DNA of 64,000 nt from an uncultured delta proteobacterium (GCA_963827685.1 CAWHBU010000002.1:352001-416000); one strand, 5' to 3'; positions 47,375-58,633 are shown, counted from the first letter of the stretch. Notes: generated from the sequence alone by a model not told the origin. Numbers and translations: made by a program.

Positions 47375-49348
47375 TTACACTCCAAAAATGTTTAATAAAA
47401 AATTTACAATCCCACCCACTCCAAAAGCAATGGGGATGATCACCGCCGATATCCACAGAGCTTTTCTTAAACCTCTCTCTTTGATCATCATAAAAAACTG
47501 GGCAATGCAGGGGATGAAAAGAGTGATGGTTACCAGGCTAACCAGGATTTGATGGGAATTGAGTTGCCCCTCTTTGGCTAGAATGAATAGACCTGCTGCT
47601 CCGTAGTCTCTTCGAAGAAATCCAATGAGGAATGCTTCCGTCACCTTAGGGGGAAGACCCAGAAAATGGACGATCAACGGGGTGGCAGCCCTTTCTAAAA
47701 GGGTTAAGACTTCTGTTTTGTGAAGTACAAAAAGAATCACGGTGCCCAGGATGAAAAGGGGAACAGCTTCTTTCAGGTACCATTCAATCCGGGCCAGGGT
47801 TTTGACGATCACATTGGAGATGAGAGGAATCCTTAAGGGTGGAATCTCCAAGATGAAATCAGAACCTTCACCCGGAATCACCCGCGATGCCAAATAACCC
47901 ACCAAGATCAGAATCCCAGCGATAATAAATATCCATGTGAAGAGGTAGAGGGCAGGAAGGGTTGCAAACATTCCAAGGGTGACCCCTAATTGGGCAGAAC
48001 AGGGTACCGCAAGGGCTAAAAGCAGTGTCACAATGGTCCTATCTTTTTCCGTCTCCAGGATCCGAGTGGTCATGGTAGCCATCGTGTCGCATCCGAGACC
48101 CAGAACCATGGGCAACACCGCCTTTCCATTTAACCCCATTTTTTTGAAGATCTGATTGGTCATCACGGCCAGTCTGGGTAAGTATCCCGAATCCTCCATC
48201 AGTCCAAAAACCAGAAAGAAACAGCCGACAATGGGGAGAACGATCGCAATGGCATACGTGAGAGCCATGGTGAGAACCCCATAGGGGCCGATAAAAAATT
48301 CTTGAATGAAGGGGATAGGGACAAAGAGCTGGAAGAGAGTGGTGACGGGCGGAAGAACCCATTTTCCAAACAGGGTTTCCTCTAAGAATTTGACACTGGT
48401 CTGTGCTCCGAAGACTCCGACAAATTCATAAGTGGCCCAGAGGATGAACAGAAGGATAGGGATCCCCCAGATAGGATGGAGGGAGAGGTTTCCTAAAAAG
48501 GAAGATATGGATTTGGGCGCCTCTCCTCGCAGCCCCATTACTTTTGACAAGAGCTCATCGACTTTCCGGAGCCTGGCCTGATTGATCAAATAACCGATCG
48601 AATCGGCAAGGTGAATCTGGATCTCGTGCCGGATTTTTTCAATTTGTTGAATATCCTTTTCTGAAAGGTTCGTGTGGAGCCATTCGGCAAGGCTCTCGTC
48701 TCCGGAGAGCAGCATGAGGGCTAAAGAGCGTTTGGAAATAGAGGCTTCAGGAAGGAGGGAGGTTATTTTTGAGAGGCCGCCTTCAATGACGTCTGGATAG
48801 TTGACCGAGATCGAGGAGGGCGGGCGAGCTTGAAGATTTTCTTTGATCTTCTCGAGACCTTTTTGTCTGGTGGCCACTGTTTTCAGGATGGGGGCGTCCA
48901 AGATCTCGGATAAGGTCTGGGTTTTAATTTCAATGCCTCTGCTCTTTGCCTCATCCCACATATTCAGGAGGACGATGAACGGAAGTCCCATCTCCGACAG
49001 CTGAAGAGAGATGAGAAGGCCCCGACGAATATTTTTCGTGTCGATGACCTGGACCAAATAGCTTTTGGGCTCTTTGAGGAGGATGTCTCGGGTCACCTTC
49101 TCATCTTCTGACATCGGGATGAGGGAATTGACGCCAGGGGTATCAAGCACCTGGAACTTCTTCCCATGAGCGGACAGAGTCCCGGTTGAAACTTCCACGG
49201 TGGTCCCCGGATAGTTTGAGACGGTCACATATTTTCCGGTGAGATAATTGAAGATGACCGATTTCCCAACGTTCGGATTTCCAATGAGAATCACTTTTTC
49301 TCTGGAAACATCGGTCCATTTCAGTACTATTTTGCTCGAAGATTCCAT
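47375..49348 (-). CDS. feoB: Ferrous iron transporter FeoB
   Basis: GNPNVGKS, NYPGTTV, DTPG, NMWDE, EDSGYLPR, LGLGC, PCSA, LFIPC. Confidence 0.95.
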   Translation of the reverse strand: MESSSKIVLKWTDVSREKVILIGNPNVGKSVIFNYLTGKYVTVSNYPGTTVEVSTGTLSAHGKKFQVLDTPGVNSLIPMSEDEKVTRDILLKEPKSYLVQVIDTKNIRRGLLISLQLSEMGLPFIVLLNMWDEAKSRGIEIKTQTLSEILDAPILKTVATRQKGLEKIKENLQARPPSSISVNYPDVIEGGLSKITSLLPEASISKRSLALMLLSGDESLAEWLHTNLSEKDIQQIEKIRHEIQIHLADSIGYLINQARLRKVDELLSKVMGLRGEAPKSISSFLGNLSLHPIWGIPILLFILWATYEFVGVFGAQTSVKFLEETLFGKWVLPPVTTLFQLFVPIPFIQEFFIGPYGVLTMALTYAIAIVLPIVGCFFLVFGLMEDSGYLPRLAVMTNQIFKKMGLNGKAVLPMVLGLGCDTMATMTTRILETEKDRTIVTLLLALAVPCSAQLGVTLGMFATLPALYLFTWIFIIAGILILVGYLASRVIPGEGSDFILEIPPLRIPLISNVIVKTLARIEWYLKEAVPLFILGTVILFVLHKTEVLTLLERAATPLIVHFLGLPPKVTEAFLIGFLRRDYGAAGLFILAKEGQLNSHQILVSLVTITLFIPCIAQFFMMIKERGLRKALWISAVIIPIAFGVGGIVNFLLNIFGV

Positions 49349-49351
49349 CCC

Positions 49352-49801
49352 CTAACGTTTTCTCCTGGCGGTTCTCTTCTTCCGGTTACATTCCTCACAG
49401 CGGCCGTAGAGCTCCAGGCGATGATGAGAGATCTTAAATCGGTGATGTTGAGCAATCTCATCCTGGAGCGCCTCAAGCGTTTGGTCCTCGAATTCAATGA
49501 TCTTTCCGCAATCCAGACAGATCAAGTGATCGTGATGGTTTCCTTCTGAAGCGGGTTCATATCGCGTCTCTTTGTCACCAAATTTCCGTTGGGTTGCAAG
49601 ACCGAGACGGGTGAGGAGCTTCAGGGTGCGATAAACGGTTGTGTAGCCGATTTTAGGATCTGTTTTGACGACCTGGGCATAAATTTGTGCGAGGCTTTTA
49701 TGCCCGGTCGAATTCAGGAAGATGTTGAGGATTTCTTCCCGCTGTCGGGTCGCGTTCAGCCCTTCTTCAGAAATTCGCGCTTTAAAAAGATCGGTCTTCA
49801 C
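49352..49801 (-). CDS. fur: Fur-family regulator
   Basis: TRQRE, IGYTTVYRTL, HHDHLICLDC, C-terminal CEEC. Confidence 0.92.
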   Translation of the reverse strand: MKTDLFKARISEEGLNATRQREEILNIFLNSTGHKSLAQIYAQVVKTDPKIGYTTVYRTLKLLTRLGLATQRKFGDKETRYEPASEGNHHDHLICLDCGKIIEFEDQTLEALQDEIAQHHRFKISHHRLELYGRCEECNRKKRTARRKR

Positions 49802-51325: not shown

Positions 51326-52162
51326 CTATGGATAGGGAAGTAGTTTTCCCCTGGCCAGAGTGATGTGCTCTTCTTTTCCAACGTGGGGATGATGGCATCG
51401 GGTGCAGGATTTTAGGGCATTCCCCCTCGCTATTTTTCCACCCTCCGGGGCATTGGTACCCATCATCATCTCTTGATATTTTTCACCCGGGCCATGACAG
51501 GCTTCACATCCCACGTTTTTCTCTTGATAGGTTTTCTTTTCCGAATTATATCCTGTTGCATGACAAGGGATACATTTCGTCTGATCCTTTTCGTTCTGGA
51601 TCAGAGAGAAGGCTTTTTGTGCCATCAAAGATTTTCTCCAGACGTCAATGTAGCTCTTGTTCATGCTTTCATGGCATTCGATGCAGGCATTAGAGCCGAC
51701 ATAGGCTGCTTCTTCTTGGGCAAAAAGAGCCGTCTCCTTGGGCGCTGCTTCTTCGGGATAGGTGGGTGCTGTTTTCTCCCAGTTTCGAATAAAGGCCACC
51801 AGTTGATTGATCTGTTCCGGATTCAGGGGGCCTCCCTCTTTCTCCCCGAGAGCAACCATCCCTGTTCCGGGAATTCCGCGTTCAATGATTTTATAAAGGA
51901 TAGTGTCATTGACCGCCTTGAGGTAGTTTCTTGAGTTGATGGCACGGATTCCTCTCTGAGGGGCTCCGTTCTCTCCGTGGCATCGAGCGCAATGTTTCTG
52001 GTAGAGGATGTTCCCCTTTCCTGCGGCCTCCAATTTCATCTGTTCAGCCTCAACTCTCACACGATGGGACTCCAATAGCCAATAGGCTGTTAGGAGGGTA
52101 GCAATGGCCACTGTCAATATCATAGCGATAAATATCTTCTTTTCCGTCACGTTTTTTAACAT
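51326..52162 (-). CDS. Membrane-anchored pentaheme cytochrome c (class I domain plus tetraheme c554-like domain)
   Basis: One TM; CARCH with GIPGTGM distal Met; CIECH, CIPCH, VGCEACHGPG, CTRCH. Confidence 0.88.
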   Translation of the reverse strand: MLKNVTEKKIFIAMILTVAIATLLTAYWLLESHRVRVEAEQMKLEAAGKGNILYQKHCARCHGENGAPQRGIRAINSRNYLKAVNDTILYKIIERGIPGTGMVALGEKEGGPLNPEQINQLVAFIRNWEKTAPTYPEEAAPKETALFAQEEAAYVGSNACIECHESMNKSYIDVWRKSLMAQKAFSLIQNEKDQTKCIPCHATGYNSEKKTYQEKNVGCEACHGPGEKYQEMMMGTNAPEGGKIARGNALKSCTRCHHPHVGKEEHITLARGKLLPYP

Positions 52163-52163
52163 C

Positions 52164-52673
52164 CTAAGTCTTGACCAGCTGAGAGGGGTCGAACTTACTC
52201 CTTTCAATCGCACTGACTGTATCAATGACGACGTTTCCAGCCACAATTTGAAGTTTGTAAAGATCTAATGGGCGTGGAGGAGGGCCGGCAACCACTTCTC
52301 CGAATTGATTGAATTTAGCTCCGTGGCAAGGACATTCGAATTCCTTAATGACCGCGTTCCAGTTGACGATGCAGTGGAGATGGGTGCAGACAGAGGAAAT
52401 GGCTAAGAATCCTCCTTCCGTTCTGACGATAAAGGTTCTTTCCTTACGAAAGGGAATGACCTCGCCCACTTTAAAATCGGTCACTTTACCGCCGATGAAA
52501 ACGGTTTCAATCTTTCCTCCCTTTCGCCTCGGCCAGAGAAAGGCAAAGGTGCCGCCAATCAATTCACCGATCACAACAGCCGCCGCGACAATCCAGGCAT
52601 AGGCAATAAATCTTCTCCGCGAGATAGGTTTTTTGTCAGCCTGTGAACCGGGGTCCTTTTTCTCTTTCATCAT
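52164..52673 (-). CDS. Rieske 2Fe-2S subunit
   Basis: Tat SRRRFI plus TM; CTHLHC and CPCHG; GPPPRPL. Confidence 0.93.
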   Translation of the reverse strand: MMKEKKDPGSQADKKPISRRRFIAYAWIVAAAVVIGELIGGTFAFLWPRRKGGKIETVFIGGKVTDFKVGEVIPFRKERTFIVRTEGGFLAISSVCTHLHCIVNWNAVIKEFECPCHGAKFNQFGEVVAGPPPRPLDLYKLQIVAGNVVIDTVSAIERSKFDPSQLVKT

Positions 52674-53218
52674 TTCCATGGCAGAACAAAACTCCAATTT
52701 GGTCCTCTAAAGAGGGACCCGATCATTGTGAAGATGAGAGCTCCGAAAATGAATAGGGTGAATAAAGTAATCAATATTCTCCTTTTCTCACCGCCGATAA
52801 AGATTCGATTAAAAAGGGACGTCAGTCTGTTTTTCGGCTTCCTATCGATATAGGGGATCAAGAAAAGCCATATGAAGATAAGGAGAGGAAGGATGATTGC
52901 AGGAATCACAGGTTTATTCGTGTAATGGATTAACTCCTGAATCCCCGTAAAATACCAGGGTGCTTTGCCGGGATTGGGGGTGACAAGAGGGTTCGCGAGA
53001 TCTTCTAAGGGGGCATCGAAGAAAAGGGAGATCAGTAAAAGGGCGAAGGTGACGGCTAAAGAGCAGATCGTTAGAAGAATGATGTAGTGCGGAAAGGTCT
53101 CCACTGTGTCTTCCGGAGCCTTCTCCAGCATCGGTGAAGTTCCTTCCACAATCTCCATGAGACCGTAGGTCTTATTGGGATCCTTGATGAACACCTTATC
53201 ATCATCTTTTGTGATCAT
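52670..53218 (-). CDS. Cytochrome b subunit IV (PetD-like)
   Basis: APLEDLANPLVTPNPGKAPWYF, PYID, three TMs. Confidence 0.9.
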   Translation of the reverse strand: MITKDDDKVFIKDPNKTYGLMEIVEGTSPMLEKAPEDTVETFPHYIILLTICSLAVTFALLLISLFFDAPLEDLANPLVTPNPGKAPWYFTGIQELIHYTNKPVIPAIILPLLIFIWLFLIPYIDRKPKNRLTSLFNRIFIGGEKRRILITLFTLFIFGALIFTMIGSLFRGPNWSFVLPWK

Positions 53219-53238
53219 GATTGCCTCATTTATTAATA

Positions 53239-53308
53239 AGTTCGGAGTAATTAGTTCGGAGTTCGGAGCGCTTAATTTTATTAACTCCGAACTCTGAACT
53301 CCGAACTC
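53239..53308. repeat. Inverted heptamer-array hairpin within the operon
   Basis: agttcggagt...agttcggagttcggag / ctccgaactctgaactccgaact. Confidence 0.75.
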
Positions 53309-53320
53309 AAAAACTCAGTG

Positions 53321-54040
53321 TTAGAGTGGTCCTGATATCCCTCCATCTTTTCTCACCCTCCAGAAATGGACGACCATCAGGACGCCGATTATAAGAGGAA
53401 GCTCAACACAGTGCACTACATAAAAACGAAGCAAGGCTTCATGGCCTACCTCATCCGCTCCAAGAAGAAAGAAACGAACATAATTTCCGATGAAAGGAGT
53501 ATAGCTCATGATGGTCGTCCCTACTGTAATTCCCCAATAAGCAAGTTGATCCCATGGGAGAAGATATCCTGTGTAACTTAGAGCCAGGGTGAGGATGAGA
53601 AGGCCAATTCCGATCACCCAATTAAACTCCCGAGGAGGCCTGTATGACCGTGTGTAGAATACCCTCACCATGTGGAGGAAGACTGTCACCACCATTCCAT
53701 GAGCGGACCATCGATGCAAATTTCTTAAAATCTTGCCGTTGAAAATAAGGGCCAATGCCTGCATATCGAAGTAGGCCCTTTCAATAGAAGGCGTATAATG
53801 AAACATCAGAAGTATGCCAGTGACCGTGAGGATGATGAAGAGGAGACAGGAGATCCCTCCCAGGCAGAATGTATAAGAGAAACGGAGGCCGTGACGTTTT
53901 ATCTTGGCCGGGAAGATATGGAGGAAAAAGTTGTTATAGATCAACAGGGAACGCTTCAGATCGGTATCCGGCATCCCAGTTCTGAAGATCGAACGCCATA
54001 CTGCCGAATCTGAAATGCGTTGTAAAATCCCTCTCTTCAT
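53321..54040 (-). CDS. Cytochrome b6-type subunit (PetB-like)
   Basis: FCLGG (heme ci Cys), HRWSAH...[17 protein letters not shown]-x14-H, C-terminal GISGPL. Confidence 0.93.
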
Positions 54041-55842
54041 CCTTGTTCACCTCTGTAAAGGGTTGATTCACGATGGTACTCTTCCATCGTGATGGTTCCG
54101 GTAGGACATCGTTTAACACAGAGGCCACATTGGATGCAGCGCGATTCATCTTTGAAGATGACAGAGGCCAAGTTGAGTTTTTGAGCATCTTCTAAGGAAA
54201 CTTTGCAAAGAGATTCAACCAAATTTGAGAGCTTTTCGTCTCCCTCTATTTCATCGAGTCTTGCCATCCGAAAACAGGATTTTGGACAGATATCGACACA
54301 GCCGCCGCACAGAATACATTTTGTCCGATCGAAGATGGTGAAGATGTGGCACTGGAGACACCGAACAGCCTCCTTTACCGCCACCTCTCTGGAAAAACCC
54401 AATTCTACTTCTCTATCCATGGACCCTCTCTCCCGAGCAGGAAGAGTCTCCATTCTCTGTCGAGGTATCTTCTCCAGGTCGGGGTCGATTTGGACCTCCC
54501 GAATCGCGGTAAAGTAAGCGGGCTTCTTTTCGAATACTTCTCCACTCAGATACTTGTGGATCGAGAGACCTGCCTTCCTTCCATCGGCGATCACCCGTAT
54601 CACATCCCTGGGGCCTGTGACAAAGTCTCCTCCAGCGAAGATACCGTGCACATTCGTCTCAAAAGTTTCCGGATTGACGGATAAACGGTCCCACCTGGAA
54701 ATTTCGAAACCGATCTCTTCGGGAAGGAAAGAGATATCCGGCGATTGACTGACCGCCGGTATGAGGAGGTCGATATCGATGTCGAATTCAGTTCCTTCAA
54801 CGGGGATCGGCCTTCGGCGGCCATCCTTTTCGGGGTCACCCAACCGGTTTCGGATACATTGGACCCCTGAGACCCTTGTTCCATCTCTCGAGAGGACCCG
54901 AATCGGTTGGGTGAGATAATGTACTTTGATGCCTTCCTCTTCCACCTCCTCTAATTCCCTGGGATCAACAGGCATCTCCTCTCTGGTCCTACGATAGAGA
55001 ATGAAGACCTCCTTTGCGCCCAATCGAAAAGAAGAACGGGCTGAGTCCATAGCTGTATTTCCCCCTCCGATCACCGCAACCCTTGAGCCAATTTTTGGAT
55101 TCTTGTCGAAATTGACCATTCGCATAAAGGTCACGCCATGGATCACACCTTGAAGATCTTCCCCGGGGATCCCCAATTTCTCAGCCTTATGCGCCCCCGC
55201 AGCGATATAAACGGCATCATACTTCTTTCTCAAACTTTCTAAATTCAGTTCTTTTCCAATGGGGGTCTCAGTGATGATTTCAACTCCCAATTCTCTCACT
55301 TCATCAATTGCTTGCTGCACCACTTCTCTTGGAAGGCGGTAGGGAGGAATTCCAACATTAAGCATCCCGCCCGGAATGGGGAATGACTCATAGATTGTGA
55401 CGGAATAACCGAACCTGGCAAGATCATTGGCGGCTGAAAGCCCGGAGGGTCCGGCACCGATGACCGCGACGTTTTTGTCCCTCTTTTTGATCGCTGTTTC
55501 TTTTTGAGGGACGTGAGTTTCGAAATCCGCAGAAGCCCTCTTCAATGAGCAGATGGAAATGGGAAGGTCGAGCAGGAGGCCTCTTCGGCATTTCTCTTCG
55601 CAGGGGTGGACACAGATACGGCCCAGAATAGCGGGGAAGAGGTTATCGCCCCGGTTAAGCTCAAAGGCCAGATTATAATTCTCTTCTCGGATTGCAGAGA
55701 TGTATTGGGGAGCACGGGTATTCACGGGACAGGCATTTTCGCAGCCGATGTTTTCTTCAAACCAACGTTGATTCGGAATTTGGACATGAAATCGATTCAT
55801 AAGAGGCCGATTCACGGCTATCCGGGAGATGCAGTGTATCAT
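54037..55842 (-). CDS. NAD(P)H-dependent flavo-iron-sulfur oxidoreductase (GltD/NfnB/DsrL-like) with C-terminal 2x[4Fe-4S]
   Basis: [76 protein letters not shown]. The start may be ATG 55800. Confidence 0.92.
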
Positions 55843-55918
55843 ATGAGGAAAGACTTTGGAAGTAAATACAGAAAATCATGTATTTTTGATGGAGAAATGC
55901 AGTATTTTGAGGATGAAC

Positions 55919-57223
55919 TTAGAATTTTCTGAAGGAACCTTGTTTCCAAGCCTGATCTTCTTCTTCTCTCCTGAAGCTACGTTCAACATAACTGACGTGG
56001 CTGAATGCTCCTGTCTCTATCGGGATAGCCACCTTCATCAGGAGGGTGAAGACGAGGAGACCGACCGCCCAGATTCCAAAGGACACCATGAGTTCCAACA
56101 GGTTCGGAACATAAACGTAGATTTCACCGAGCGGGTCCGGGACAAATCCTGGTATGACGAAACCCGGTCCCTTTTCAATCCAGACCCCTATGATGACGAG
56201 AAGACAGCCCATGTTGAGGGTAGGCAATCGTTTTCGTGCACTGGGAACAAGGAAGAGGAGAAAAGCAATCACGTTCATGGCCATGGCTGCCCATATCCAG
56301 GGGACAAGCTGGTTGTGTCCATGGAGTCCTTCGAATAGGTATTTGAGGGGAGCAATATGGATGGTATTCGAATAATACTCCTTGTATATTTCGGCGGTGA
56401 GAAGAAAAAGGTTGACAAACATCGCATAGGCGATCAGCTCGGCAATCTTGAACAGTGCCCTGTCTTCAATCTTGATGTCTGATATCTTACGGATAATCTG
56501 AAAGATAATGATCATGATGGCCGGACCCGAGCACAAAGCGCTCGCCAAGAACCTCGGTGCGAGAATCGATGCATTCCAAAAAGGACGTGCCGCAAGGCCG
56601 TTGTAAAGGAACGCGGTCACGGTGTGAATGCCCACTGCCCATGGGATGGAGGCCAATATGAATGGAAGGATCAATTTCCAGTTGGGTTCTTTCCGATAGT
56701 AGAATTTGATCAAGAGGTAGATAGGAATAAGAAGATTCAAGAACAGATAGCAGTTGAGAACAAGGACATCCCAGGCCAGAAGCGATTGAGGAAAGTTCAT
56801 CAATCCGACAAAAGGAATCATGTGCCAGAACCGGTCGAGCCTTCCGAGGTCGACCATGACAAAGAGGATGGCCATCACAATGGACGATGCGGCGAAGAGT
56901 TCACCCAGGACGACGATCTCTTTGATCGGTTTGAACGAGTAGATATAGGATGGGATAACCAGCAGGACCGCGGCCGCAGCCATGCCAACCAGGTACGTGA
57001 AGTTGGCAATGTACAGGCCCCACGAAACCTGATCGGTCATATTCGTTTCGATGAGACCGAGTTCATGCTGTTTCAGGTAAAACGACAAACCTATGAATAT
57101 GATCGTCAACAGGAAAAGGCACCAGGCATAGTAGGCTTTGTTCCCTCTCACCACAAGGGACAGCGTCCTTTCGTAAAAATGCCATGTTTCTTTCATTATT
57201 TCCCTGAATTTATCCATTGGCAT
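55919..57223 (-). CDS. NrfD/PsrC-family quinone-interacting membrane subunit
   Basis: SWGLYIANF, VDLGRLDR, SLLAWD, IHTVTAF, RPFWN, APRFLASA. Confidence 0.92.
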   Translation of the reverse strand: MPMDKFREIMKETWHFYERTLSLVVRGNKAYYAWCLFLLTIIFIGLSFYLKQHELGLIETNMTDQVSWGLYIANFTYLVGMAAAAVLLVIPSYIYSFKPIKEIVVLGELFAASSIVMAILFVMVDLGRLDRFWHMIPFVGLMNFPQSLLAWDVLVLNCYLFLNLLIPIYLLIKFYYRKEPNWKLILPFILASIPWAVGIHTVTAFLYNGLAARPFWNASILAPRFLASALCSGPAIMIIIFQIIRKISDIKIEDRALFKIAELIAYAMFVNLFLLTAEIYKEYYSNTIHIAPLKYLFEGLHGHNQLVPWIWAAMAMNVIAFLLFLVPSARKRLPTLNMGCLLVIIGVWIEKGPGFVIPGFVPDPLGEIYVYVPNLLELMVSFGIWAVGLLVFTLLMKVAIPIETGAFSHVSYVERSFRREEEDQAWKQGSFRKF

Positions 57224-57225
57224 CT

Positions 57226-58140
57226 CTATGCTTCGAAAAAATAATAGAACTTAGGCTCGGTATTTAAATCTTCCTTGAGCCGGAAGACCCGCTTTCGATC
57301 GATGATATACCTGATTTCGCTGTTAGGGTCGAGAAGATTTCCGAATTTCCTTGTTCCTGTGGGACAGGCTTCCACACAAGCCGGGTATCTTCCATTTCTC
57401 ACCCGCTGGATACAGAAGGTGCACTTGTCAACAGCACACTTCATCCTCGGTCTGTTTCCGAGGTAGTGGACCGAAGTATTCACCTCTTCGGACGGGATGT
57501 TTGGCTCCGCCCAGTTGAAGACTCTCCCTTTGTAGGGACATGCGGCGATACAGTACCTGCAACCGATGCACCAGTTGTAGTCGACAACCACCAATCCATC
57601 CGGCTCCTTCCAGGTGGCATGGACAGGGCATACCTTCACGCAAGGAGGATTCTCACAGTGCTGGCACTGTACGGGCAGATAGACGAACCCTTTCTCCGGG
57701 ACCTGAGGAGGATCGTAGTAATGCTCGGAGTTTTCAAGATTGATCAGATTCCCTCGCTTGAGTCTGAGAACCCTGATCCATTGGAGCTGAGGTTTATAGC
57801 GGGAATTATTGTTTTCTTTTACACACGCGTAGACGCATCGTCTGCAGCCGATGCAACGTGAAAGTTCAAAGCCGTAACCCCACAGGGTATCGGGGAGGGC
57901 TTCCTTTGTGCTGATCTCAAATTTCTTTCCGTATTTTTGCGAATATCTCTCTTCCAGCTTGGCAATGATGCGCTTCTTCTCATCAGGGGTTAATTCGCGA
58001 AAATGCTTTTGCAGAAGATCCTCTGCCTCTTCCTTCGAGCAAGAGGAGAGTATGGGAAGAGAAACACCTGCCAGAGCGGTCAGGGAGAGATTGTGGAGAA
58101 ACTCTCTTCGGGTATAACGTTTATTATTTCGATTTTGCAT
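57226..58140 (-). CDS. NrfC/DmsB-like Fe-S protein with Tat signal
   Basis: TRREFL; lipobox-like LSSC; CIGCRRCVYAC, CQHCENPPCVKVCP, CIGCRYCIAACP, KCTFC...PACVEACP. Confidence 0.92.
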   Translation of the reverse strand: MQNRNNKRYTRREFLHNLSLTALAGVSLPILSSCSKEEAEDLLQKHFRELTPDEKKRIIAKLEERYSQKYGKKFEISTKEALPDTLWGYGFELSRCIGCRRCVYACVKENNNSRYKPQLQWIRVLRLKRGNLINLENSEHYYDPPQVPEKGFVYLPVQCQHCENPPCVKVCPVHATWKEPDGLVVVDYNWCIGCRYCIAACPYKGRVFNWAEPNIPSEEVNTSVHYLGNRPRMKCAVDKCTFCIQRVRNGRYPACVEACPTGTRKFGNLLDPNSEIRYIIDRKRVFRLKEDLNTEPKFYYFFEA

Positions 58141-58633
58141 CGTGGTTTTTTTCCGGACGATATGGTGGAGGCTCAGGCTTCAACGGTTTAAATTTCGGGT
58201 CATGGGGGTTATGGCAATTGGCGCAGAGATAGTAAACCCTCTTGCCCTGACCGGAAAAGTATCCGACCCGCTTTCCATGAATACCGGCCTTCCAGTCCTT
58301 ATATTGAGGGCCATGACATTCGCCGCACAGCCGATAGCTTTCAGTGAATTTGATTAAATCCCCGTTATAGAGCCTCAGCTTATCTCGATTCTTCGCATCA
58401 TGGCAGTCGAGACACCATCGCATCGTTTCGGCGTGATGGAGCTTGATATCGGTGTGTTCTTCTTTCAGTTCTCTCTTCTTTCGATTCACCTCCAAGGTGG
58501 CATGACAATTGCTGCAAGGAAACATTCCCTCTGTCATTGGAGGAGGAGTATATTCTTCAACGACCGCCGTGGCAGAGGAAGCGAAAAAAAGCAGCAGAAA
58601 CAGTGAAGTAACTGCTGCGTTGGATACTTTCAT
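58124..58633 (-). CDS. Periplasmic tetraheme cytochrome c
   Basis: Sec signal; CSNCH, CLDCH, CGECH, CANCHNPH. Confidence 0.9.
   Translation of the reverse strand: MKVSNAAVTSLFLLLFFASSATAVVEEYTPPPMTEGMFPCSNCHATLEVNRKKRELKEEHTDIKLHHAETMRWCLDCHDAKNRDKLRLYNGDLIKFTESYRLCGECHGPQYKDWKAGIHGKRVGYFSGQGKRVYYLCANCHNPHDPKFKPLKPEPPPYRPEKNHDAKSK

Follow-up and report, generated by a model that had tools for sequence, protein, structure and literature searches.

A stretch of 64,000 nucleotides from an uncultured delta proteobacterium (GCA_963827685.1, CAWHBU010000002.1:352001-416000; the whole of it is called the window below) carries a cluster of eight respiratory genes, g1 to g8 (Table 1). On balance, the cluster appears to be two respiratory modules that were placed side by side by a deletion of about seven genes. 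The first module (g1-g3) resembles DsrJOP, and the second (g4-g8) would encode a five-subunit Rieske/b6 complex with an NAD(P)(H) flavoprotein. An earlier note on this DNA had described one hybrid cluster of eight co-directional genes and proposed a single circuit for it. The eight open reading frames (ORFs), all on the minus strand between 58633 and 51326, and the identities given to them are borne out by Pfam and NCBIfam matches and by CXXCH motifs; the proposal of one circuit is weighed below.

Two modules probably joined by a deletion

The comparison covered 41 related genomes, some of them incomplete, and the counts are descriptive only. Orthologues of the flavoprotein (64-100% identity) were found in 20 of these genomes, the next matches being paralogues of at most 51%, and DsrP-like orthologues (at least 74% identity) in 21. 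Both modules are present in 13 genomes, the flavoprotein-Rieske/b genes only in seven, the DsrOP-like genes only in eight and neither in 13, so that one module is found without the other in 15 of the 28 genomes having either. One 98% complete genome (G013) contains module 1 followed by unrelated genes, with no module 2 adjoining. The order flavoprotein, cytochrome b6, subunit IV, Rieske protein and pentahaem cytochrome c is kept, at 50-98% identity, in all 18 of the relatives' loci whose sequence runs on beyond the flavoprotein gene. By this comparison the eight genes read as two separate modules, independently distributed. In answer to the synteny search proposed in the earlier note, the linkage from the flavoprotein to the pentahaem cytochrome is conserved, and the nrfD module is distributed independently of it.

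Six loci (G010, G009, G006, G015, G020 and the metagenome-assembled genome (MAG) MFD05942) share an order of 15 genes. It begins with genes for a tetrahaem cytochrome c and the DsrO-like and DsrP-like proteins, continues with a QrcA-like protein, a molybdopterin-like protein (777 residues), a QrcC-like protein, a second NrfD protein, two multi-domain class I cytochromes c of about 390 residues and a 157-residue protein with a cNMP-binding domain, and ends with the flavoprotein module. The seven genes between the modules thus comprise a Qrc-like complex (four genes), two cytochromes c and the cNMP-binding protein. The Qrc-like set of the relatives scores 123 bits for QrcA and 300 bits for QrcC, both below cut-off, and includes the molybdopterin-like subunit. 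In a further MAG (L053) the cNMP gene alone lies between the DsrP-like and flavoprotein genes, and only in the window's genome (G000) and one sister genome (G004) does nothing lie between the modules.

Both ends of the missing segment can be located in the gap between g3 and g4. About 95 nucleotides after the g3 stop codon align with the DsrP-to-QrcA-like spacer of five relatives (G010, G009, G006, G020 and G002), and the right end of the gap joins the conserved start of the flavoprotein gene directly. The same junction is found in G004, with 88% identity over 153 nucleotides. With one breakpoint in the DsrP-QrcA spacer and the other at the start of the flavoprotein gene, the window and G004 are read as carrying a deletion of about seven genes between the modules, and the eight-gene hybrid of the window as a juxtaposition made by that deletion.

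A gap after g3 had been noted earlier and is present, although its length is 103 nucleotides rather than 76 once the start of g4 is moved to GTG 55815. The listed ORF begins at ATG 55842 (601 residues), but alignment with 18 orthologues favours the GTG, as does the position of ATG 55842 inside the -10 hexamer of a promoter-like element, TTTACT-17-TATGAT (55866-55838). The G010 counterpart is TTGATA-17-TAGAAT; TAnnAT is kept in all seven genomes compared, with a spacer of 17 nucleotides (18 in G002). The earlier note had counted a promoter or terminator between the two halves, in this gap, as evidence against its proposal. A predicted promoter-like element conserved in seven genomes was found there, and no terminator-like site was found within the gap.

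The minus strand of the gap also contains the repeat AAAATAC (55908-55902) and a palindrome, AAATAC-N10-GTATTT (55885-55864), which overlaps the -35 hexamer. This repeat and palindrome (window 55864-55908), conserved in the seven genomes, resemble the operator of some regulator, as a prediction. In G010 only (L023:8221-8260), an inverted repeat with 13-bp arms (CCCCGTTAGAAAT...ATTTCTAACGGGG) has been inserted downstream of the cNMP gene, ahead of the start of the flavoprotein.

Table 1. The eight genes and the gap between the two modules (feature, window coordinates, strand, description)
g1	58124..58633	(-)	periplasmic tetrahaem cytochrome c, 169 residues; N-terminal signal or anchor; first gene of the DsrJOP-like module
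g2	57226..58140	(-)	NrfC/DsrO-like periplasmic iron-sulfur protein, 304 residues, twin-arginine translocation (Tat) signal; 17-nucleotide overlap with g1
g3	55919..57223	(-)	NrfD/DsrP-type integral membrane quinone-interacting subunit, 434 residues
gap g3/g4	55816..55918	(-)	intergenic, read as deletion scar
g4	54037..55815	(-)	cytoplasmic GltD/NfnB-type NAD(P)(H)-FAD iron-sulfur flavoprotein, 592 residues from GTG 55815
g5	53321..54040	(-)	short b6-type cytochrome b, 239 residues
g6	52670..53218	(-)	subunit IV-like protein, 182 residues, three transmembrane segments, Qo motif APWY
g7	52164..52697	(-)	Rieske [2Fe-2S] protein, Tat-type anchor; likely start ATG 52679
g8	51326..52246	(-)	membrane-anchored pentahaem cytochrome c; likely start ATG 52162

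The flavoprotein-Rieske/b6 module

GltD/NfnB-type proteins work with NAD(P)H, FAD and iron-sulfur clusters. The g4 protein has the Pfam domains Fer4_20, Pyr_redox_2 and Fer4, with a C-terminal 2x[4Fe-4S] region, and matches NCBIfam PRK12771 with 450 bits. Among solved structures it comes closest to the GltD-like modules of NfnABC/StnABC and to NfnB (PDB 5jca, 9bov and 8oh5; E 1e-96 to 1e-116). By simple hydropathy, which was used for all transmembrane counts, it has no hydrophobic segment. The cysteine pattern for four clusters is invariant among 10 divergent homologues linked to Rieske/b genes, which fits the four-cluster wire modelled for Kuenenia (PMC12954380). The overlap ATGA between the flavoprotein and cytochrome b6 genes is present as described earlier, at 54040-54037. 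The family is large, with at least eight paralogues within G000. In a tree of 21 flavoproteins, the 12 that are linked to Rieske/b genes form one clade (support 81/80) with two strongly supported subclades, apart from eight G000 paralogues and one Clostridia homologue.

The g5 protein matches Pfam Cytochrome_B and scores 276 bits on NCBIfam ExtP, below the cut-off of 290 (the other NCBIfam cut-offs used were ExtQ 150, DsrO 200, DsrP 350 and QrcD 570 bits). It has three clear hydrophobic segments and one weak one. His109, His123, His210 and His225 are invariant in 105 aligned cytochrome b sequences, of which 86 are linked to a flavoprotein gene and 19 have none within 1.5 kb. A cysteine of the CxGG type associated with haem cn lies at residue 59 in the sequence FCLGG. 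As a family marker this cysteine was rejected, being present in 35 of the 86 linked and 18 of the 19 unlinked sequences. An N-terminal histidine of cytochrome b was likewise tried as a marker of the flavoprotein link, a test aimed at the ligand that an extra haem b may have in the Kuenenia models; His41 proved invariant in all 105 sequences and so does not tell linked from unlinked ones, and His50 is variable among them. A second cytochrome b6-like gene of G000 (C1:210803-211360) is 40% identical to g5.

Subunit IV, encoded by g6, scores 69 bits on ExtQ, has a weak Pfam Cytochrom_B_C match and contains three hydrophobic segments. Its Qo motif, APWY, is found in 18 of 18 Desulfobacterota orthologues and is AAWY in a Chloroflexi one. 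Among metagenome loci, APWY occurs in 8 of 9 close loci and in 44 of the 45 distant ones having a subunit IV match.

The g7 protein matches Pfam Rieske, carries the cluster-ligand motifs CTHLHC and CPCHGAKF and has one membrane anchor. Its best PDB matches are 8hn2, 9rk4 (E 2e-19) and 9rk3 (E 4e-15); the last two we take, from their molecule names, to be Kuenenia proteins, as the listing gives no organism. Under a published rule based on residues 2 and 4 after CxCH, G-F marks a low potential (about 150 mV), S-F a Mid+ one and S-Y a high one (PMC4122944). The signature in g7 is A-F, as in 16 of the 17 orthologues that include the motif, the remaining one having V-F. It is G-F in the Chloroflexi protein and S-Y in 9rk4 (PDB alignment), and the distant metagenome loci with a Rieske match have S-F in 51 of 54 cases and S-Y in two. 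The Rieske protein of g7 is predicted to be of low potential. The lineage would therefore pair APWY with a low-potential Rieske protein, departing from the pattern of Kao and Hunte.

The last subunit, g8, has CXXCH motifs at residues 86, 188, 225, 247 and 281 and one membrane anchor. It matches Pfam Cytochrome_CBB3, Cytochrome_C554 and c3/c7 domains, with one haem in the class I domain and four in the multihaem domain.

The DsrJOP-like module

Module 1 would be a paralogue of the DsrJOP part of DsrMKJOP and not that part itself. The g1 protein has CXXCH motifs at residues 40, 74, 103 and 137, a single N-terminal hydrophobic segment and Pfam matches to Paired_CXXCH_1 and Cytochrome_C7. It has no match to NCBIfam DsrJ at E<0.01, whereas the true DsrJ of the genus scores 156 bits. 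The translation of g2 includes a twin-arginine motif, TRREFL, matches Pfam Fer4_11 and scores 186.4 bits on DsrO, below the cut-off, and 158.6 bits on QrcC; no hydrophobic segment was found in it. The g3 protein, with about 10 hydrophobic segments, matches Pfam NrfD and scores 404.4 bits on DsrP, above the cut-off, and only 43.6 bits on QrcD.

That g1-g3 are the organism's own DsrJOP was first entertained since g3 is the sole DsrP match above cut-off in G000, a situation shared by five relatives. This assignment was dropped on finding that G002 carries canonical dsrMKJO and an NrfD subunit at another locus (DsrM 448, DsrK 722, DsrJ 156 and DsrO 301.8 bits). The NrfD protein that follows dsrO in G002 scores merely 116 bits on the DsrP model. 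The gene order there (G002:C4:953000-966000, L067) is dsrN, dsrC, a first dsrM/dsrK-like pair, canonical dsrM, dsrK, dsrJ and dsrO, and the NrfD protein gene.

The window's genome is 5.2 Mb in 14 contigs, 94.5% complete with 8% contamination, and its dsr region is broken: contig C11 ends past a dsrM/dsrK-like pair, named from its position and weak family matches (best, Pfam NarI-family at 37.8 bits), and contig C1 begins inside the NrfD gene of this region. Genes for dsrAB are present on two small, similar contigs, C11 (6,971 nucleotides) and C12 (4,194 nucleotides), which suggests strain heterogeneity, duplication or contamination. For NrfA, no match above cut-off was found in G000.

The flanks of g1-g3 contain no dsrMK. 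As the earlier note had observed, no molybdopterin gene lies beside the cluster, and the flanking genes are unrelated to it. The upstream flank is a divergent gene of the 2-phosphosulfolactate-phosphatase family. Downstream, a Fur-family regulator and a FeoB ferrous iron transporter are encoded on the minus strand (window 47375-49801).

Occurrence of the second module in other lineages

Of 401 genomes sampled evenly across the phylum, seven contain close flavoprotein orthologues (E <=1e-190), all seven belonging to families f1 and f3, and 105 contain related cytochrome b genes (E <=1e-45). The genomes of f3 have the set from the Qrc-like genes to the pentahaem cytochrome, and one of them (G027) is without the DsrOP-like module in the 3.3 kb upstream. 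Among 22 second-tier cytochrome b loci (48-64% identity, with 1.5 kb flanks), three also encode a g4-like flavoprotein, the genes running flavoprotein, Rieske, cytochrome b, subunit IV; these are in G301, G056 and G197, each of another family. In G197 (L102; C33:15000-32000), a distant Desulfobacterota family member, a Qrc-like operon (QrcA-like, molybdopterin-like, QrcC-like and NrfD genes) stands divergently beside these genes, and this arrangement is a second, independent version of the pairing of Qrc-like and flavoprotein-Rieske/b genes. Outside the phylum, a Chloroflexi MAG encodes a cNMP protein, flavoprotein, cytochrome b, subunit IV, Rieske protein and cytochrome c at 30-57% identity (36-57% for the genes of module 2).

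A metagenome scan, made with an alignment of ten linked flavoproteins, returned at least 515 stretches encoding relatives. Within the best 80, which were inspected, cytochrome b lies beside the flavoprotein in 66 and Rieske as well in 61 of those. Of the remaining 14, six offer under 420 nucleotides of sequence downstream of the flavoprotein gene, and eight offer at least 3.2 kb. These eight (L115-L121 and L125) encode full-length g4-like flavoproteins of 40-42% identity that retain the C-terminal ferredoxin domain. Rieske/cytochrome b genes are absent from the 3.2-6 kb downstream of them, and they represent a sister subfamily in a different context. A large soil/peat group (L127-L182) has the order flavoprotein, Rieske, cytochrome b, subunit IV, flavoprotein identities of 36-41%, and the S-F and APWY motifs; several of its contigs encode a cytcX-like multi-domain cytochrome c downstream. 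DsrOP-like genes were absent near the Chloroflexi locus and the 54 distant metagenome cytochrome b loci, within 6-10 kb on each side (less at contig ends).

In most relatives and in the Chloroflexi MAG, the gene for the cNMP-binding-domain protein, of about 157 residues, directly precedes that for the flavoprotein; it was lost in the window and G004. The protein has no DNA-binding domain match, its best NCBIfam match being the N-terminal part of FtrB/CRP at 52 bits, and may serve the Rieske/b complex as an accessory or regulatory subunit. Its gene overlaps the flavoprotein start in G020 (L027:8411-8884) and is also found at loci L021, L022, L023, L024, L025, L026, L028, L029, L030, L031, L033, L053, L056 and L057:9343-9780. 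In MAG MFD05942 (L056) the QrcA-like, molybdopterin-like, QrcC-like, cytcX, cytcY and flavoprotein genes appear as split high-scoring segment pairs in different frames, probably assembly frameshifts. A separate molybdopterin-like and QrcC-like pair in G000 (C2:211958-215083; 34% and 48% identical to their Qrc-like counterparts in the relatives) implies that a Qrc-type complex exists elsewhere in that genome.

Electron flow and competing readings

Modules made up of NrfD, NrfC and cytochromes shuttle electrons between the quinone pool and the cytochromes of the periplasm. Rieske/b6 cores oxidize quinol at the Qo site, where the electrons are bifurcated to the Rieske cluster and haem bP. By its family, module 1 would link menaquinone in this way to the pool of periplasmic cytochromes. 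In module 2, the flavoprotein with its four iron-sulfur clusters would be wired to the n-side of cytochrome b6 through putative subunit contacts, and the pentahaem cytochrome c would take the place of cytochrome f/c1. A complex prediction from cytochrome b6 and flavoprotein alignments scored 0.21 against a mark of 0.32, which speaks neither for nor against their contact. The Qo site, the Rieske cluster and the pentahaem cytochrome would link menaquinol to periplasmic cytochromes, and the b haems, probably with haem cn, would link to the iron-sulfur chain, FAD and NAD(P)(H). The direction is tentatively favoured in which NAD(P)H donates into the b-haem/Qi side, giving either a Q cycle fed by NAD(P)H, with menaquinone reduction of the Qi type, or menaquinone reduction through confurcation at Qo, because the predicted low-potential A-F Rieske protein is unlike the anammox proteins of >+300 mV.

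Several observations weigh against the reading of two modules joined by deletion, with module 2 as a wired five-subunit complex. Both modules are neighbours in at least nine genomes of family f1, and, as no terminator-like site was found in the gap, read-through and a functional link may occur. A single origin of the flavoprotein link is only moderately supported by the clade value of 81/80, in a tree whose paralogues were drawn from one genome and one Clostridia MAG. The low potential of g7 is an extrapolation, as the rule lists G-F and not A-F as low. Finally, G000 encodes a homologue of COX1 (haem-copper oxidase subunit I), which together with the class I domain of g8 would suit a high-potential outlet and the forward direction of the anammox type.

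It is somewhat unlikely, though a strong rival to the direction favoured above, that module 2 works in that forward direction, as proposed for anammox bacteria, with menaquinol bifurcated at Qo and its electrons passing through the Rieske protein and the pentahaem cytochrome to a high-potential acceptor and through the b haems and iron-sulfur clusters to NAD(P)+. The subunit composition equals that of Kuste4569-73, g7 matches the two presumed Kuenenia structures, named so only from their molecules, and the COX1 homologue is a possible sink reached through the class I domain of g8. The Rieske ligands, a short b6 with separate subunit IV, an in-operon NAD(P)/FAD iron-sulfur gene and a multihaem cytochrome c in place of f/c1 are all shared with the anammox type; the high-potential Rieske protein (S-Y, >+300 mV) is not found in g7, judged by its signature as a proxy. 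A low-potential Rieske protein would give little driving force to about -320 mV against the membrane potential, dsrAB in the organism suggests a low-potential lifestyle, and subunit IV has three transmembrane segments against five modelled in Kuenenia.

The single circuit, or supercomplex, of all eight products is quite unlikely. In this proposal of the earlier note the modules share the menaquinone pool and bifurcation at Qo drives reduction of NAD(P)+ or ferredoxin, or the reverse. It draws on the synteny in f1, the terminator-free gap, and the recurrence of NrfCD-type (Qrc-like) complexes beside flavoprotein-Rieske/b clusters in f1 and f3 and divergently in G197, which makes the pairing of Rieske/b with an NrfD-type quinone module a recurring theme. 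That recurring partner is, however, the Qrc-like complex, which was lost from the window, and not the DsrOP-like one, which is absent from the Chloroflexi and distant metagenome neighbourhoods. The tight adjacency in the window is moreover a product of the deletion, seen only in G000 and G004, the modules occur apart in more than half of the genomes having either, and the gap carries a conserved promoter-like element, predicted from sequence. As a whole the one-circuit proposal has weak support, against which stand the deletion origin, the independent distribution and the promoter-like element.

There is a similarly low chance that, in this class of Thermodesulfobacteriota from soil and peat, the flavoprotein-Rieske/b6 complex acts with an NrfD-type cytochrome:menaquinone module as a closed menaquinone loop between periplasmic cytochromes and cytoplasmic NAD(P)(H). 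Such a confurcating or bifurcating device may have a Qrc-like partner in most relatives and a DsrJOP-like one in the window's deletion lineage. If it exists, sulfate reducers would have a route, in one direction or the other, for electrons between the periplasm and pyridine nucleotides that needs neither complex I nor Rnf, and the low-potential Rieske protein would tune the complex differently from the anammox enzymes.

Least probable is that the flavoprotein is a soluble Nfn-, DsrL- or GltD-type enzyme merely co-transcribed with an ordinary menaquinol:cytochrome c oxidoreductase: its family is large, with many soluble members, several paralogues in G000 and the eight metagenome homologues away from Rieske/b genes, but the ATGA overlap suggests translational coupling to cytochrome b6, the linkage is kept across phyla and two gene orders, the linked flavoproteins form their own clade, and complexes of cytochrome b with a large oxidoreductase are reported to be highly expressed in Kuenenia (de Almeida 2016, via PMC5600118).

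To our knowledge, a Rieske/cytochrome b complex with an NAD(P) oxidoreductase is the only quinone-based bifurcation proposed to feed pyridine nucleotides, and this function is proposed only, even in anammox bacteria. The five-subunit design is common outside anammox, in a dsrAB-bearing Thermodesulfobacteriota class, a Chloroflexi MAG and many soil/peat metagenome contigs. Its genes stand in two or more different orders, the Rieske signature varies by group (A-F here and S-F in distant metagenome loci), and a Qrc-like complex stands beside module 2 in several lineages. The variation in predicted Rieske potential and the natural deletion variants, with or without the Qrc-like, cNMP and DsrOP-like genes, offer comparative handles on direction and partners.

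Comparison with known systems

Module 1 shares with DsrJOP of DsrMKJOP the layout of periplasmic cytochrome, iron-sulfur protein and NrfD protein; g3 passes the DsrP cut-off and g2 is nearest to DsrO. It differs in that g1 is tetrahaem without a DsrJ match (DsrJ is trihaem), g2 falls under the DsrO cut-off, no dsrMK adjoins, and the genus has, apart from these genes, a canonical dsrMKJO operon that includes an NrfD subunit. Compared with the menaquinone reductase Qrc (QrcABCD), the cluster is without a QrcB molybdopterin-like gene, and the scores of g2 on QrcC (159 bits) and g3 on QrcD (44 bits) are low.

The g4 protein is homologous to NfnAB, NfnABC and StnABC in its Fer4_20 and FAD/NAD(P) core. 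It lacks an NfnA- or HydBC-type partner gene in the cluster and flanks, has an extra C-terminal 2x[4Fe-4S] region, and its gene is linked to a membrane cytochrome b6. Its architecture, by domains alone, is similar to that of DsrL (a GltD-like core with a C-terminal ferredoxin domain), but g4 is not linked to dsr genes.

The models named ExtP and ExtQ are nearest to g5 and g6, and ExtOPQS of Geobacter sulfurreducens (extHIJKLMNOPQS, PMC5877670), comprising a Rieske protein, a cytochrome b, a membrane protein and a cytochrome c, likewise combines a Rieske/b core with multihaem cytochromes. Both matches nevertheless fall below their cut-offs (276 against 290 and 69 against 150), and none of the listed products of the Ext cluster, among them a porin, a rhodanese and cytochromes with 10 and 12 haems, is a flavoprotein (PMC5877670).

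In the literature searched, to which the cited supplements do not belong, no characterised identical operon was found, nor the Desulfobacterota clusters, the Qrc-like/cNMP/DsrOP-like neighbourhood, the A-F signature or the deletion variant, and on p-cresol methylhydroxylase with bc1 nothing was found beyond PMC4122944. The core linkage of cytochrome b and NAD(P) oxidoreductase is already known as a genomic pattern (PMC5600118) and is not known to be characterised biochemically. Module 2 shares with cytochrome b 'subfamily G' and the 'APWY clade' (Dibrova et al. 2013/2017, PMC5600118; PMC4122944) a short cytochrome b, the APWY motif, an occurrence in several phyla and the noted co-occurrence with genes for large NAD(P)-binding iron-sulfur oxidoreductases (PMC5600118). 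That clade spans delta-Proteobacteria, Chloroflexi, Nitrospirales, Planctomycetes and Actinobacteria; according to its authors none of the complexes has been characterised, and reverse operation is proposed (Kao and Hunte 2014, PMC4122944). By its motif module 2 would belong to this clade, although the signatures reported there are Mid+ to high (PMC4122944), unlike the A-F found here.

The closest composition is that of Kuste4569-4574 and Kustd1480-1485 of Kuenenia stuttgartiensis. The earlier note had likened the cluster to Rieske/cytochrome b complexes with an NAD(P)H oxidoreductase described mainly in anammox bacteria; the likeness holds for composition, but 'mainly' needs qualifying, since Dibrova et al. 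(2017, PMC5600118) note that outside the planctomycetes, too, similar oxidoreductase genes are found close to those for cytochrome b 'in many other cases'. Kuste4569-4573 encode a Rieske protein, NAD(P) oxidoreductase, b6, subunit IV and multihaem cytochrome c. In AlphaFold3 models the path starts at haem bN/cN and reaches FAD by way of perhaps an additional haem b and then four iron-sulfur clusters. Reduction of NAD(P)+ is the direction preferred by the authors, with the high potential of the Rieske protein as the driving force; Hauser et al. measured this potential above +300 mV in Kuenenia (PMC12954380). The Kuenenia complexes and module 2 have in common the Rieske protein, short b6, subunit IV, a multihaem cytochrome c that replaces f/c1, and an NAD(P) oxidoreductase on the cytoplasmic side that carries FAD and four iron-sulfur clusters, and the CxGG haem-cn cysteine of g5 has its counterpart in the haem cN of the published models (PMC12954380). 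On the other side, g7 has A-F, predicted to be low in potential, in place of S-Y and the measured high value, g6 has three transmembrane segments and not five, g8 is pentahaem and not hexa- or octahaem, there is no HAO-like partner, and the gene order is another one. The window's relatives also have an extra upstream cNMP gene and a Qrc-like complex, and the host belongs to a dsrAB-bearing Thermodesulfobacteriota MAG lineage.

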